A stretch of 30,805 nucleotides of DNA from a virus. Positions 3,001 to 9,000 of this stretch are shown piece after piece. How positions within the stretch are numbered: position 1 is the stretch's first letter; each line of letters starts with the position of its first letter. The position numbers were made by a program. The stretch lies in the UHGV virus genome UHGV-0077717, one strand, 5' to 3'.

Positions 3001-6000
3001 CTTGGATTTGTAGATCCACTTCTATCAGGAATATGCCCTTCCGGAGCATTCCATATTATCTCCGTATCAGGCATATCAATTGCCAGGTCGCCGCGTGTAA
3101 TTACAATATTGTTTGTTAGTATCAACTCTTTTATATTTGTTGTGATTTTTTTTGCTGGTGAGTTAATTGCTTTATGAAATGCTTCGGTGTTGTCAGCGCC
3201 ATCTTTAGCTCCGAAATCCTCAAGCATAACATTATATATATCATCTGATTTCCATACATTTCCTTCTGATGTGAAAATTATCGTTCCTCCGTTATCTGTC
3301 AATCCATCAGGATTAACACTACGGAAAAACCTTCCACCTCCTGAATAGCTGTCAGAGTAATATCCCCTCAGTCTTATAACCTGTCCATCATAACTTGGTT
3401 CAATTGTTCTCAATGTAGATATATCTTTGCATTCTCCTATATACTTATAGCCATCATCACTTTTCAGCAAATATGAAAACTGATCTGGATCGTACTTCAG
3501 CACATTAGGGAAATAGAACTGCTGTGATCCATATGCATCGTACACAGCCATAGAATGCCCTTGTACAGTAACGAACTTAGCAATCTGTCCGTTATATACA
3601 GGATAACCAGCAGCGTTAATGATGATTGGTTGAGAAACAGGAACGTGAGAGCCGTCTTCGTTCTCTACATAAACCGGAATCTGGTTTTCAGTATTTACCG
3701 GGTCAGTGTCAATTTTACCGATATAAATTTTGCCATTGGCTACGGCTTTAAAAGAACGAGCCATAGTGAAGAGTTGCGAAGGCATCGATACGATCACATT
3801 GGCTGTAATGTCTGTCATTTAATTTGCTCCAGATGCAAGGAATCGCCGCAGCGTGGCTACGGTGAATTTTGGGCATAAAAAAAACCCAGCCGAAGCTGGG
3901 TCGTTGCGTTGGTTATCTGTCAGTAGTTATGTACTGAAGGAGGTAATTCTTTATTCTTAAGTCTCATCCATGCGGAAAGATTCGTTGGTCCGTCTGGTTC
4001 ATTAATATCAACATCTCGTGTGTGGTTTATTAAAACGTCTCTCGCCATTCCGATAACATACGAGAATTCATGACCGTAGTCGTAGCATCTGCCGGAATAG
4101 TTCGATTGAATTTGTTTTAATGCCGGATACAGTTCGCGGAATAATGCCTGTGAGCGGTTGGCATAATCCCATAACCATACAAGGCTGTTTGCTTCTTTTG
4201 CAGAAAGCTCGTTGGTTTTCTTCTCTTGTTTGCCGATGAACTCTCCTTCAAGCGGAACGCGAGCTGCAAGTGACAGTGCTTCGGTAAACTGCTCCTCACT
4301 AATTTCTTTGTACGAACATCCAAAATGGGATTTCAGTGACGACCACATGGTGATCATCGCCTTAGCCTGTTTTTCTTTTGGCAGAGACTGACCGCGACTC
4401 ATGACGAGTTGTTTAATGGCTTCCTGCTGTTCAGTGGTGATTTTACCCGGCAACGCCTTTTTAGCTTTGCGTGGGTTAACTACATGGCCTTTAGTCCAGT
4501 ACTCGTAGAGCACATCGTCACACTCTTCCTGATACTGGATTACCTTGTCGCGGATTTCAGGGCGGACTTTGTTAGGGCTGATGGTTTGCAACCAGCCATT
4601 CAGTTTACGTAAAGCAAGGCAAATCATGGTCTGCACACCGCCAACTGAAGGTATTGCGATTTCCACAATACCTTTAGCAAATCTTTGTTTTAACTTTGTA
4701 AACTGTGAAGCCCAATCCATACCCATTCCCTCAACGATAGGTTTCATTGGGGTATACGGTTCGCCGTTGTGATTGACAACATAAAGCTCTGCGCCGTGGA
4801 ATGGTACATTGATAGTAGATGCTGCTGTTGCTATACTTTTCATGTCAATATTTCCTAAGACGATTTGTTGATACCGAAGCCCTGACTGTTCCAGCAGTTG
4901 GGGCTTCACTGTTTTTGTAAGTCACTGTAGCTATAAAGCCACTGACCACTCATTTTTGATTTGATTGACTCTACTGAGTCACGGCAAGGAATGATTCCGC
5001 CTGACATCATTCTGATTTCCGTAAATTCACCACTCCTTATCGATTCAATGCCATCAATGTTAACTAAAGATTTACCTCTACCAAGTGCATTCTCATAGCC
5101 AATCTCATCAACCTCAATAAACCTCATACCGTTATCCCCTCTCTCTTCAGGCTGTCCAACACCCGTTTAATTACTTCTGCGCTGAATGAGCGACACTCTT
5201 CCTTTGCTTTTTCTTCAAGGATTTTTTCTAGCTTCTCTGGCATACGCAGTGTTTTTACCTTCATTGCATCCTCCGTTGTATGTGGTACGCATACATAGTA
5301 TTTAGGTACGCATTGATAGTCAATAGATACCTACATATCCTGTGGTAAAAAATTATTCAGGATGCGCCGATGTCTGATCGTAAGTACAAAAACCCTCAAG
5401 TGAATCTGAGGCTTCCTGTAGAGATAAAGGAACGTCTTATTGAACTGGCTGAGGCTAATTCTCGTTCATTAAATGCTGAGATGGTCGCGGCACTTGAAGC
5501 GTGGACCGAAAAAAACAAACACATTCAAGCGCTAGATCTTGCAACTATAGCATCGCGACTGATAGAGCTTGAGCATGATGTTGAGAAGTTAAAATGTATG
5601 CATGGCAATGGTGAAAAATGAAACGTATCGCTATCCTATTGCTCCTGTGTCTCTCGAGCATAGCTAACGCAGAAACAAAATCAGACGATAGCAGTTTTGA
5701 TGAAATACAAGGCCTCATGATAGCTTCTAAAATGGCTGGTATGTGTGGTGCAATCAAACAAATGGCAATATTCCAAGAATCTACAAACATGCCAGGTGGG
5801 AATGAATTCTTACAGAGATTCCTTACTACAGAGCAAGCAAGGCTCGGGATGACTCCGCAGCAATTTCTTGAAGCATGTCAGAAATCAATCTCTATTTATA
5901 CCACCTATTACAATATGAGCTCTGAGAAAAAATAGACTAGGATTTCAACGGCTTCCGCGTCCCTGAGTGATTCTGTTGCGGATTTGCTTCTTGCGGTGGT

Positions 6001-9000
6001 TTAAGCTGGAGAGCTTGGCTTCTGCTTCTGATATTTGCGCATCTAGATCTTTAAGCTCAAGATCTGAAAGTCGCTGGTCAAGCAGGGTTTGGTTCAACTC
6101 AATGTTGTTCAGGCGTTCTTCTATGGTCATGATTTCTCCTTATAAAAAACCCACCTGACGGTGGGTTTCATTTCTTAATCTTGCTTCGTGGAAGGCATAA
6201 GAGATGCGTTTGCCTCTTTTGGCTTCAAGGTATACATCCCACCATTAAATGGATCAACAGCAAGCCAACCAATTAACCCACCAAACACAAGGTTTCCACC
6301 AATATACCAACCATTAGCATTGGCTTTGATTGGCAGGGTAACTGGTTCGTACCCATCCTTTTCCATAGTGATCTGGTAGCTCTTTTTGCCAAAATAACTA
6401 CCATCTGACTTGGCAAGAGTTACTCCTTGCGGGGTCTTACCTTGCGCAACAATCACGCCTGATTCGTCTTTTACCTTAAAGCTCGCACCGGAAGGATTGC
6501 TGTTCACTTGCACAAGCTGTGTTTCGTCACCAACAATAGTTGCGCACCCAGATAACATGATAGCGCCAGCAACGACGCTAATAATCCTCTTCATATCAAT
6601 TTCCATATCTAAAAAACCGGAAACATCCTAATGACAAACCATTCAAATGTGAAGCACGAGATAAGATCAATCCATCCGTGGACGACTAATTACTCCTGTG
6701 TCATTCCGCTTAGCGATGCCACAATCCCAGCCCTCGACAAACGCTGGAACTCTTCGTTTCCTAGTGCATCGCGAATTGCTTTTACGGCGGCCTTATTTGC
6801 CATAAATCTGCGTTCCGCCGCCGCTAATGCGCCATCACTTGCCCCAACTTTAACTGCCTTTGTCGCCTCTTGAACAGCCTTTTCAATAGCGTAACGACCA
6901 CTTCTGGTTGCGGATAATTTCGCTATCGATCCTTTTGCTATTGCATCAATTGCTCCACCTGCAGCGCCACCCACTATTGCTCCAATAACACCTCCTCCAG
7001 AGAACCCTGCGATAGCGCCAGCGGTTGGAAAAGCGCCAGACAATACGCTCTCTAAAACTGGATGAAGGCCATTCTCAAGAGTGCTAATGGCTGGCATAGA
7101 GCGCCCTGTTTGTTCAACATATCGAAGTGGCTTTGTTGCTGCTCTTGCAAGTTCTCCAAACCCCCTAGCAATCCTACCAAGCTCTGGAGAATATCGACTA
7201 ATTGCCTTCACGTTTTGTGGGGTAAGAATAGTCGCGATATGCTTAATTCCAGCCTCTTCAGACTTACCTCCGCGTACCCCTTGCGATACCGCATCTTGTA
7301 ATATTGATGCAATTGCTGGCGCGCGTTCCGACTCAGGTAGGGCGCTTATTATTTTATGGAACTGACCTGTTCCACTTTTTGCTGAACCCTGCAACGCCTT
7401 AGAGCCATTAGTTACCAACTGATCAGTTGCAAGGTCTCTACCAAACGCTGCTTCAGCCTGTTCTTGTGCTGTAAATCTTGCTTTTGACAGATCATTAGCT
7501 TTTTGCCAGTCATCAAGAAAACCGCCATTTTGAGCCATTATGCGCATATCTTCCGTTGCTGCATCACGAAGCTCAGCCATGCGCCTTGCCGTATTTGCCT
7601 CACCAGACCTTATATACTTCTGCTCTGCGTCAGCAAGTTTACTTCGCCATGCCTTCATGGCATCAAACGTGATTCCTTTTTTACCAGTTTTAGCATAAGC
7701 AGATGCGAATTGTTTCATCTCAGGAGTTAGCGGCATGCCAGCCAAAATATCACCCTGAATTGTAGCGTTCAGGTTTGACATTCTGGCCTTTGCGTCAGGC
7801 ATCGTGGAGCGGACGCTATCCCATGCGGCCTTTTCTGAATTTTTCATTTTATCAATACTTGCCAAAACCCTTTGTTTTATGGCTGCACTTTTTTCTGATG
7901 CAGTTCCTGCTTCAGCCCCAAACTCATCCAATGCTGAGTTAAATTTCGACTCTATTTCACTGAATGCTTTGGTGTGTGCATCCTGTGTAATTCCGGGCTT
8001 TGACGCCAGAATCCCCTCCGCCTGAGCAAGACCACGACTACCTGATCTCATGCCAGGAGTTAATGCGTTGATATCTATTCCAGCAGTATCTGCTGCTTTT
8101 GCTATTTCGTCTGACACATTAGCTGACTGTCTGGCAATAATCTCTCTTCCTGTACCAGACTTTGCCATTTTCGAAACATCAGCAGCGGAATTTATTGCCC
8201 CGCCACCAAGAACTTGAGGTGATTTAGAGGTTAAGATCCTTCCAGCCCCAGAAAGTATCCCCTGAGCACCAATATTGATACCACCGTTAATGGCAGCATT
8301 TTGTGCAAAGTCGCCCTCCTGATTTGCAGCATCAGCAAGAGAACCTGCAATCATGTTTCCTGCGGAACCGATATCTCCAGCGAGCTTTGCTGGCGCTCCA
8401 GCAGCTTTTGCCGCTGTGCCAATTGGCAGGAGATACCCACCAATTGTTTCACCGGCTTGCGCGTAAGGGTCTGTCGGTCGATCGACTGGACGATAGACAT
8501 CATCCAATACTTTTGGCCCACCAAGCCCCTGACTGATTGCATTAATCAGACTTGCGCCACCCTGCAATACGTCAAATGGTATGTTTACCAGACCACGACC
8601 AGCCTGTTCTGCAATTTGCCCTGCACTTTGACCACCAGTGAGCCAATCGCCAGCTTGTTGCATCAATGATGGTTCTTCACGCGCTGGTTCATTATTGGCC
8701 TGATTAACTGTTTGTTGCTGAACAGCCTGACCAGCAAAATACTCATCAATGGCGGTGCCAATATCTTCCGTGCTCGTACCATCAGGGAAGGTAAATGTCT
8801 TTCCGTTTGCAGTTACTTTCATCATTCCACCGTAAATTGAATGCCTGATTTTGAGGTATATGATCCGGATTGACTCTGCTGCTGTTGGGTATTTGTCGGT
8901 TGTTGGTTATTGCTCTGTTGTTGCGCAGGCTGCTGAATATCTTCATACAGCTTGGCTTTTCTGGATTGCAATTGCTTAGTTAGTCCGCTGGGGAGAGAAT

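Follow-up and report, generated by a model that had tools for sequence, protein, structure and literature searches.

Which function is encoded in the interval that separates the last ejection-protein gene from the immI region in the P22-like virus genome UHGV-0077717? The stretch analysed here (the window, 30,805 nucleotides (nt) in full) carries in this interval a small gene on the minus strand, preceded by promoter-like DNA and closed by a hairpin terminator, whose product is a lipoprotein of the epsilon34 gp15 family. We find that this cassette is a known kind of element, a lysogenic-conversion lipoprotein moron, from a family without a studied member. The structural and genomic statements on the cassette are made with high confidence; the lipoprotein probably alters the cell envelope of the lysogen and perhaps keeps other phages out. 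Coordinates are collected in Table 1.

The original prediction described an open reading frame (ORF) of 143 amino acids (aa) with an LSGC lipobox. Such a frame is present when the upstream ATG at 6606 is used (6175-6606), and it matches the profile phrog_6823 over its full length (residues 5-143 against profile positions 1-139); the second ATG at 6594 (MKRII...), which gives 139 aa, is better supported as the start, since the homologues, of 137-139 aa, the PHROG profile and the RefSeq annotation all begin there. The upstream spacer that had also been predicted measures 83 nt to ATG 6606 and 95 nt to ATG 6594. Signal-peptidase-II lipoproteins are recognised by a positive n-region, a hydrophobic core and a lipobox [LVI][ASTVI][GAS]C whose Cys lies about 15-35 residues from the start, and the 139-aa protein has all of these features, which supports the reading as a lipoprotein. 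The lipobox Cys17 (codon 6544-6546) and the +2 residue Ala18, which is followed by Thr at +3, are invariant in alignments of 28 and 77 sequences, and the Cys is also invariant in an alignment of 36 sequences. In E. coli, the Lol rule sorts lipoproteins without Asp at +2 to the outer membrane; the +2 residue here is Ala, which is predicted to send the protein there. The protein is 98.6% identical to epsilon34 gp15. It is named in different sources as 'hypothetical protein', 'Lipoprotein', 'PEGA domain-containing protein', 'uncharacterized protein YceK' (JGI) or 'peptidase associated/transthyretin-like domain-containing protein' (PGAP). Base composition gives no signal of foreign DNA, the gene having 45% G+C against 48% in the neighbouring ejection gene.

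Upstream of the gene there is a sigma-70 promoter-like site that matches the consensus at 9 of 12 positions and whose -10 hexamer TAGGAT ends 30 nt before ATG 6594. A stretch of about 60 bp that holds TTCACA-17-TAGGAT, CTTCACATTTGAATGGTTTGTCATTAGGATGTTTCCGGTTTTTT, is common to at least two unrelated left flanks; a second upstream variant, found at 17 loci, has a different spacer and carries TTCACG-17-TAAGAT at the same distance from the ATG. This promoter geometry is repeated in unrelated flanks of homologues (TTCACG-17-TAAGAT and TTGAAC-17-TAGGAT, with the -10 ending 29-30 nt before the ATG). The -10 hexamer and the start-site or 5' leader region that follows it form a 22-nt element, TTAGGATGTTTCCGGTTTTTTA, and homologues in lambdoid siphophage prophages keep 21 of the 22 bases of TTAGGATGTTTCCGRTTTTTTA with a protein identity of 76-77% and synonymous third positions that are about 50% identical; the element is thus far better conserved than synonymous sites. 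A relaxed form of the motif occurs once in the window, against 0.07 occurrences expected, and 83 times in 1.45 Mb of fetched loci: 72 sites were located by script 20-60 nt upstream of a family gene and the other 11 were assigned the same position by comparison of coordinates, so that, counting these 11, the relaxed motif is found in the fetched loci only ahead of family genes. A reading of the upstream element as an RcsB box was dropped: the site coincides in part with the -10, only 39 nt from the ATG, so that an activated promoter would have no space downstream of it.

At the other end of the gene, the intrinsic terminator begins 9 nt past the stop codon. The strong downstream hairpin that had been predicted is there, with a GC stem and a run of six T residues (minimum free energy of -16.5 kcal/mol for a 61-nt stretch, z = -3.2). 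A hairpin with a T-run directly follows the stop codon in every homologue examined, with unrelated hairpin sequences in siphophage contexts. The terminator is also a mosaic joint, where an epsilon34-like segment (6144-6654) meets an Emek-like segment (5945-6172).

The distribution of the cassette shows how it travels. In 75 P22-like contigs from IMG/VR the gene always lies between a gp16 homologue and mnt, ant or the tailspike gene, and the DNA on both sides of it varies. P22, Emek and Kapi1 lack it whereas epsilon34 has it; a search of 50,697 phage records found it in epsilon34, Gally and vB_EcoP-720R6 only. Homologues with 68-80% identity occupy the slot that separates the tail assembly chaperone from the tape measure in prophages of E. 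coli and Proteus (L088, L177) and in other contigs, one lies after the tape-measure gene (L179), further ones stand just before gene J, and a Halomonas prophage copy adjoins a CI-type repressor, which makes at least four slots in other phage types. The gene is carried by 126 of 5,426 complete E. coli genomes (about 2%), and related prophage copies occur in Salmonella, Proteus, Pseudescherichia, Phytobacter, Pantoea and Halomonas; no chromosomal copy in E. coli or Salmonella was seen among the family matches obtained. Joint transfer of the promoter-like element, the ORF and the terminator from one phage backbone to another, unrelated one is well supported by these comparisons, and since they travel together the cassette is a moron by definition, as its autonomous layout had led the original prediction to propose. 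Expression in the lysogen would then start from its own promoter.

The orientation of the gene raises the possibility of a late role in the lytic cycle, such as conditioning the outer membrane for lysis or keeping progeny from injecting into debris or vesicles, a role proposed for T5 Llp. In fact, the gene is on the same strand as the ejection genes, no terminator separates it from the gp16-like gene, a Q-type antiterminator gene is present in the window, and in siphophage contexts the homologues lie inside the late tail operon. For a purely late gene, however, the private promoter-like element and terminator that are kept in every context would be needless; moreover most P22-like phages are without the gene (three distinct phages in the records searched have it), which is therefore dispensable for lytic growth. 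We consider a role of this kind quite improbable.

The label PEGA, under which it had been described, holds at the level of the fold, which is a transthyretin or carboxypeptidase-regulatory-like beta-sandwich, and not by sequence: the match to PEGA (PF08308) reaches 17.5-17.6 bits (E 0.0035-0.0038), below the Pfam gathering threshold of 20.8 bits, and a match at E <=0.01 was obtained for 7 of 36 relatives (best 3.2e-5). Foldseek against the PDB returned generic sandwiches only, at E 0.016 or worse, and a sequence search of solved structures gave no informative match. The most conserved part of the family follows the sandwich; it is a Gly-rich hydrophobic segment, NGWYIGGNLVFGGLIGWLAVDPFNGGM, with a mean hydropathy of 1.5 over 15 residues, in which W96, Y97, N101, G109, D114, P115, G118 and M120 are invariant in 77 sequences. 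Apart from the signal peptide, residues 95-117 are the one hydrophobic stretch of the protein. Structure prediction places helices at residues 95-103 and 107-112 with a moderate predicted local distance difference test (pLDDT 58-72), modelled, again with moderate confidence, as two short helices forming a hairpin that projects from the sandwich. A segment modelled in this way is what would be expected of a part lying in a membrane or against a partner.

An initial search gave 598 homologues, and an exhaustive HMMER search extended the family to 3,721 clusters at E <=0.001, of which 1,334 were found at E <=1e-10. All the members aligned (28, 36 and 77 sequences) have the lipobox, the sandwich and the motif NGWYxxGNxxFGGLIGWLxVDPxxGxMYxL. 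Long forms of 168-172 aa, with an extra C-terminal tail, are stand-alone chromosomal genes, for example in Modicisalibacter, in Hylemonella (his region) and in a Gallionellaceae genome, where lptD is about 6 kb away. In 48 species the 91 nearest neighbours of the long forms fall into 89 Pfam families, the top ones without phage hallmark, and a conserved operon partner of these forms was rejected. Short forms are chromosomal in Photorhabdus, Xenorhabdus and Lonsdalea. From this stand-alone occurrence of long and short forms on chromosomes we take the phage gene to be a captured, trimmed copy of a cellular envelope lipoprotein. In one protein (P0141) the family lipoprotein module is followed by an OmpA-like 8-stranded barrel, and the family gene of three Pasteurellaceae genomes, two of them from Lonepinella species, is preceded at 10-17 nt by a co-oriented gene for an OmpA-like barrel, the pairs being flanked by housekeeping genes. 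The fusion and the gene pairs, although a small sample, point to the outer membrane and to a working relation with small barrel proteins. Literature searches on PEGA lipoproteins, prophage lipoproteins and morons found no study of the family.

Given this cellular background, the lipoprotein may equally be an envelope-fitness or virulence factor, that is, a cellular-type outer-membrane lipoprotein with which the prophage provides E. coli and Salmonella and which, like Bor, aids robustness or host survival (in serum, bile, antimicrobial peptides or stress) and leaves phages unaffected. This reading is a close rival of exclusion, if rather doubtful in itself. The family is mainly cellular, with long forms among housekeeping neighbours and the chromosomal short forms just mentioned, and no residue that is invariant in the cellular family has been lost from the phage copies; the strong purifying selection described below, which shows no mark of an arms race, and the presence of a porin moron in the same siphophage prophages agree with it as well. 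It leaves unexplained the preference for slots beside ejection, tape-measure and J genes and the replacement of sieA in the same interval, and no similarity to Bor or other known fitness lipoproteins was found.

Selection on the gene was examined in the 75 P22-like copies, among which there are 50 different coding sequences. Of their 87 codon variants, 69 are synonymous and 18 non-synonymous, and 73 are changes at third positions. Roughly half of the sites with an amino-acid change are in the signal peptide or the C-terminal tail; residues 88-122, which take in the conserved hairpin, have none. The same lipoprotein allele is found beside gp16 homologues that are 49-100% identical to that of the window. 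Because the mature protein is nearly invariant across mosaic backbones, its binding target is probably conserved; there is no sign of an arms race with phage proteins, and the target is likely a host component.

These data also bear on SieA. In P22, sieA occupies the interval between gene 16 and mnt (PMC2629481); its product is a polytopic inner-membrane protein that acts on ejection-protein function and is expressed in the prophage from its own promoter, and the gene is found in 22 of 66 P22-like phages (PMC10883804). The original prediction placed the lipoprotein gene at the sieA position. This is right for the interval, which is the same, but not for the orientation: P22 sieA, which comes after mnt and orf59a, is transcribed against the late operon, whereas the lipoprotein gene of the window runs in the direction of the late operon. 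The counterpart of P22 orf59a and sieA in strand and position is a 105-aa ORF at 5618-5935. The SieA family is defined by a polytopic inner-membrane topology, the cytoplasmic motif FxRYPxEAxxFNK and similarity to types A to C; the lipoprotein does not fit this definition and is a predicted outer-membrane protein, nearly invariant and unrelated in sequence. A tblastn search with P22 SieA gave no match in the window (E <=1e-3) or in 80 lipoprotein loci (E <=1e-5), and found relatives with 28% identity elsewhere. The lack of sieA in the 80 loci fits alternative occupancy of one slot. It would also agree, together with the shared interval, with a SieA analogue that blocks DNA passage across the inner membrane through the ejection proteins gp16 and gp20 of P22-like phages. 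We find such an analogue very improbable, since SieA is a multi-pass inner-membrane protein (PMC10883804) while the lipobox and the Ala at +2 predict the outer membrane, the sequences are dissimilar and the relative strand is opposite, the same allele stands beside very different gp16 alleles, and close homologues occur in siphophages that have neither gp16 nor gp20.

The reading that we favour is exclusion at the level of the envelope. The cassette would be a self-contained lysogenic-conversion moron of the epsilon34 gp15 family. Its own promoter would drive synthesis of the lipoprotein in the lysogen and read-through from the late operon would do so late in lytic growth, and its terminator would halt lysogenic transcription ahead of arc, ant and the tailspike gene. 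The hairpin may dip into the inner leaflet of the outer membrane beside small 8-stranded OmpA-type barrels, and the resulting envelope change would stop superinfecting phages at the outer membrane or immediately past it, by way of a conserved host component and not by way of the proteins of the incoming phage. Exclusion is favoured because the gene has been captured repeatedly beside DNA-delivery genes and because sieA is replaced in the same interval. Small phage lipoproteins such as Cor, Llp and Ltp mostly exclude phages, which is a further reason, and P-FimU provides a precedent (PMC12952977). Several points weigh against it. A consensus scan finds five promoter-like sites in 2.2 kb where 4.5 are expected by chance; the protein has no homology to any protein of known function, and Pfam, NCBIfam, PHROGs and PADLOC assign it to no functional family. 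The cellular relatives stand alone among unrelated neighbours, so that the ancestral role was a non-phage one and plain fitness is equally natural. The tail-module slots and the gene 16-mnt interval also house morons that do not exclude phages, and the absence of sieA from lipoprotein loci is confounded by shared ancestry. The hairpin model is of moderate confidence only, and the suggested link with OmpA-like barrels comes from one fusion and one clade. The whole chain, envelope-level superinfection exclusion through a conserved host outer-membrane component, is therefore put forward as a guess, possible but held tentatively. The wider scheme, in which a widespread cellular family of lipoproteins, built of a transthyretin-like sandwich and an invariant glycine-rich membrane hairpin, acts together with small 8-stranded barrels on the inner side of the outer membrane and a trimmed copy has repeatedly been captured by temperate podophages and siphophages as a new exclusion protein acting via a conserved host partner, seems to us unlikely as it stands.

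A possible control of translation was considered in the leader. The GUUUCY box of the 22-nt element can pair with GGAAAN of the ribosome site in five of the six upstream types, and one two-sided change was seen by eye; the energies of the leader hairpin are weak (-1.3 to -7 kcal/mol, z 0.24 to -2.2), and RNAalifold on an automatic alignment found no covariation. With these weak energies and insignificant z-scores, a hairpin hiding the ribosome site was rejected as an explanation and is kept as an unexplained lead only. A transcript starting about 7 nt after TAGGAT would leave the 5' arm outside the moron's own transcript; speculatively, GUUUCY pairing solely in late read-through transcripts would permit different translation in lysogeny and in lytic growth.

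The terminator is followed by a second small gene. A 61-aa ORF with an AAGGAG Shine-Dalgarno sequence directly after the terminator had been predicted and is present; it corresponds to Emek orf61 and to phrog_7586, with a full-length profile match (residues 1-60 against profile positions 1-60 of 61). The protein is helical and basic at its C-terminus. Heptad-like spacing and weak coiled-coil-type matches in Pfam are hints of a possible coiled coil, and PADLOC likewise gave weak coiled-coil-type matches only (PbeC, JetC). In 62 loci there are 45 distinct coding sequences with 31 synonymous and 18 non-synonymous codon variants, the first 30 residues being invariant and the variation limited to the basic tail; the ORF is a real gene under purifying selection. 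The label XhlA (PF10779), used for it in some records, was rejected (14 bits, E 0.057, against a threshold of 34.7), and no kinship was found with the hkcB-like coiled-coil protein of epsilon34. The 93-aa annotation in Kapi1 adds unrelated upstream sequence to a conserved core that starts MTIEER.

The original prediction implied that the two genes are functionally paired, and a two-gene system working only jointly would be suggested by their adjacency and co-orientation in the window and by the strong ribosome site of the small ORF. The pairing fails in other loci: the 61-aa ORF is beside the lipoprotein in 11 of the 75 P22-like lipoprotein loci, the lipoprotein is present in 10 of 64 orf61 loci, and where both occur the ORF has three positions, right behind the terminator, some 400 bp farther away, or on the upstream side of the lipoprotein gene. 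With a terminator between them and with different nearest relatives (epsilon34 for one, Emek for the other), a joint system is extremely unlikely. The 61-aa ORF has at least six upstream context types, several with the same hairpin after another upstream gene, and it is an independent mosaic module, separate from the lipoprotein. Antitermination of the Q type past terminators is established lambdoid biology; since no promoter was found between the terminator and the start of the ORF and an antiterminator gene is present, the ORF would be read solely by late transcripts that pass the terminator. As a side observation, the terminator hairpin with the following ATAAGGAGnAATCATG (6136-6168; L013-L087, L099-L162) acts as a recombination joint: the same hairpin is found after at least seven different upstream genes, and one ribosome-site and start context is shared by the 61-aa ORF and, at other loci, by an unrelated ORF (MIYPSNNPP...).

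Table 1. Features of the lipoprotein cassette, of its surroundings in the window and of related loci (window coordinates unless a locus is named).
Feature	Coordinates	Strand	Details
Sigma-70 promoter-like site	6625-6653	minus	-35 TTCACA (6653-6648), 17-nt spacer, -10 TAGGAT (6630-6625)
Conserved 22-nt element TTAGGATGTTTCCGGTTTTTTA	6610-6631	minus	-10 hexamer and start-site / 5' leader region
Lipoprotein gene	6175-6594	minus	139 aa; phrog_6823, E 5.9e-86
Lipoprotein signal peptide	6544-6594	minus	MKR, IISVVAGAIM (10-residue hydrophobic core), lipobox LSGC
Predicted beta-sandwich domain, transthyretin / PEGA-like	6316-6525	minus	residues ~24-93
Gly-rich hydrophobic segment NGWYIGGNLVFGGLIGWLAVDPFNGGM	6235-6315	minus	residues 94-120; most conserved part of the family
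Intrinsic terminator	6144-6168	minus	A-tract, stem CCCACC/GGTGGG (six pairs), 4-nt loop, T6
Shine-Dalgarno AAGGAG of 61-aa ORF	6136-6141	minus	5 nt before ATG 6130, right after the T-run
61-aa ORF	5945-6130	minus	phrog_7586, E 6.6e-43; Emek orf61
105-aa signal-peptide ORF	5618-5935	plus	phrog_19844; overlaps mnt stop codon
mnt-like repressor gene	5370-5621	plus	Arc-family Pfam match, E 3e-10
gp16-like gene	6690-8825	minus	last ejection (DNA transfer) protein
Tailspike gene	1371-3818
Integrase	50-1243
Q-type antiterminator gene	24056-24574	minus
OmpA-like barrel genes, Pasteurellaceae	L199 5401-5988; L200 5401-5988; L223 5397-5981
Porin genes, siphophage prophages	L004, L006, L008 10261-11424; L007 10270-11343

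The layout of the window is that of a P22-like phage (Lederbergvirus), and a chromosomal prophage of E. coli strain DP051 is identical to it over 5300-6900 (100%). On the minus strand, in the order of transcription, there are the helicase, the Nin genes, the Q-type antiterminator, holin, endolysin, Rz, the virion genes and three ejection-protein genes, and after the gp16-like gene come the lipoprotein region, the immI region and the tailspike gene. The immI region contains mnt, arc, an extra 73-aa ORF, ant and the sar antisense RNA. The 73-aa ORF (4906-5127; phrog_11805, equal to Emek orf73) is inserted between arc and ant, and because of this insertion sar (4845-4910; Rfam, 62 bits against a threshold of 43) lies over the orf73-ant junction, unlike in P22, where it lies over the arc-ant junction. 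In the Rfam scan sar was the only real match of the window, the lipoprotein region giving sub-threshold, terminator-like partial matches only. The mnt-like gene and the 105-aa ORF are convergent with the 61-aa ORF. Given its overlap with mnt, the 105-aa ORF is probably co-transcribed with mnt from the mnt promoter in the lysogen. It has a cleavable signal peptide, MKRIAILLLLCLSSIANA/ET; a member of phrog_19844 is named 'Periplasmic protein' in one source, and the exact 105-aa sequence occurs on at least 1,000 contigs.

Elsewhere in the window, the 797-aa DnaB-like helicase (28057-30450, minus strand) has LAGLIDADG / homing-endonuclease matches at residues ~393-455, with the DnaB N-domain (3-95) before them and the C-terminal domain (540-762) after them; the replicative helicase of the phage thus probably contains an intein that carries a homing endonuclease. 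Two more Rha-type regulatory genes are present beyond the ant of immI (21497-22051 and 25405-26130, both minus strand), one combining Rha with ORF11CD3 and the other a sub-threshold Rha-like N-terminus with a KilAC antirepressor domain. Among the related loci, the E. coli siphophage prophages that carry a lipoprotein homologue before the tape measure contain a porin gene (Porin_1 / Porin_4) as well; inserted with the minor tail gene on one side and tail gene L on the other, it is a second envelope moron of the same tail module. The Tolumonas copy (L095, 6001-6510) is in an apparent genomic island, near a PLD-like nuclease-family gene, an HTH-2TM gene, DUF2971 and a lipoprotein signal peptidase (Peptidase_A8) gene. 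In two unrelated lineages, Lonsdalea (L188, L192-L194, L196) and Chromohalobacter (L211, L217, L222), the nearest large same-strand upstream ORF apparently encodes a protein of cyclic-di-GMP turnover, possibly by coincidence: the ORF of Lonsdalea L188 codes for an EAL protein that has a CSS motif, and in Chromohalobacter PAS/GGDEF/EAL matches are attributed to the large upstream ORFs without assignment locus by locus.

If the lipoprotein excludes phages, it would add a mechanism at the level of the outer membrane to the exclusion repertoire of P22-like and lambdoid prophages, with relevance to the prediction of phage host range and to phage therapy; as a fitness factor it would be a further conversion gene of the Bor type. 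Either way the cassette gives a genetic handle on a cellular lipoprotein family of 3,721 clusters and on its invariant motif. Database entries for the gene have hypothetical or domain-level names only, despite its presence in about one in fifty complete E. coli genomes.

Several known systems can be compared with the cassette. TraT is a lipoprotein that interferes with OmpA-dependent phages and with conjugation, and SlyB, which surrounds outer-membrane proteins, has a lipid anchor together with a beta-sandwich and a glycine-zipper membrane hairpin. The resemblance of the lipoprotein to TraT and to SlyB/Pcp, compared by description, is a lead only; unlike in SlyB/Pcp, the hairpin comes after the sandwich, being inserted near its C-terminus, and a Pfam scan at E <=1 found no glycine-zipper, Rick_17kDa or TraT family in the protein. 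PADLOC-DB 2.0 has no model that matches it. Cor (of phi80, N15 and HK022) and T5 Llp are small outer-membrane lipoproteins that block FhuA, with genes near tail or receptor-binding genes. They are like the protein studied here in being small phage-encoded lipoproteins, and differ from it in fold and size. The Cor family itself was rejected: NF047972 gave E 0.064 and 13.3 bits, against a cut-off of 31, over residues 5-33 only, and phrog_1119 matched residues 5-24 only, which is the signal peptide.

HK97 gp15 is a small inner-membrane protein, not known as a lipoprotein, and a superinfection-exclusion moron. It is likened to the homologues by genomic position, the slot between the tail chaperone and the tape measure being that of HK97 gene 15. 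Lambda Bor, an outer-membrane lipoprotein moron conferring serum resistance, as cited in PMC7067206, is like the window protein a prophage-borne lipoprotein with cellular homologues and is the model for the fitness reading; no sequence match to it was found in scans of the lipoprotein against PHROGs, Pfam and NCBIfam. In F10-like phages of Pseudomonas, P-FimU is a copy of a cellular envelope component in the tail cluster, expressed by the prophage, that defends against related phages (PMC12952977, where T5 Llp is also cited); it differs in belonging to the minor pilin family, in the envelope structure concerned and in the host. Finally, epsilon34 gp15 is of the same family and lies in the same interval; it shares the upstream element and has a terminator of the same kind. 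In that phage a divergent hkcB-like gene stands between the ejection gene and the gp15 gene, and mnt abuts the terminator, whereas in the window the lipoprotein gene directly follows the ejection gene and the 61-aa ORF is inserted after the terminator.

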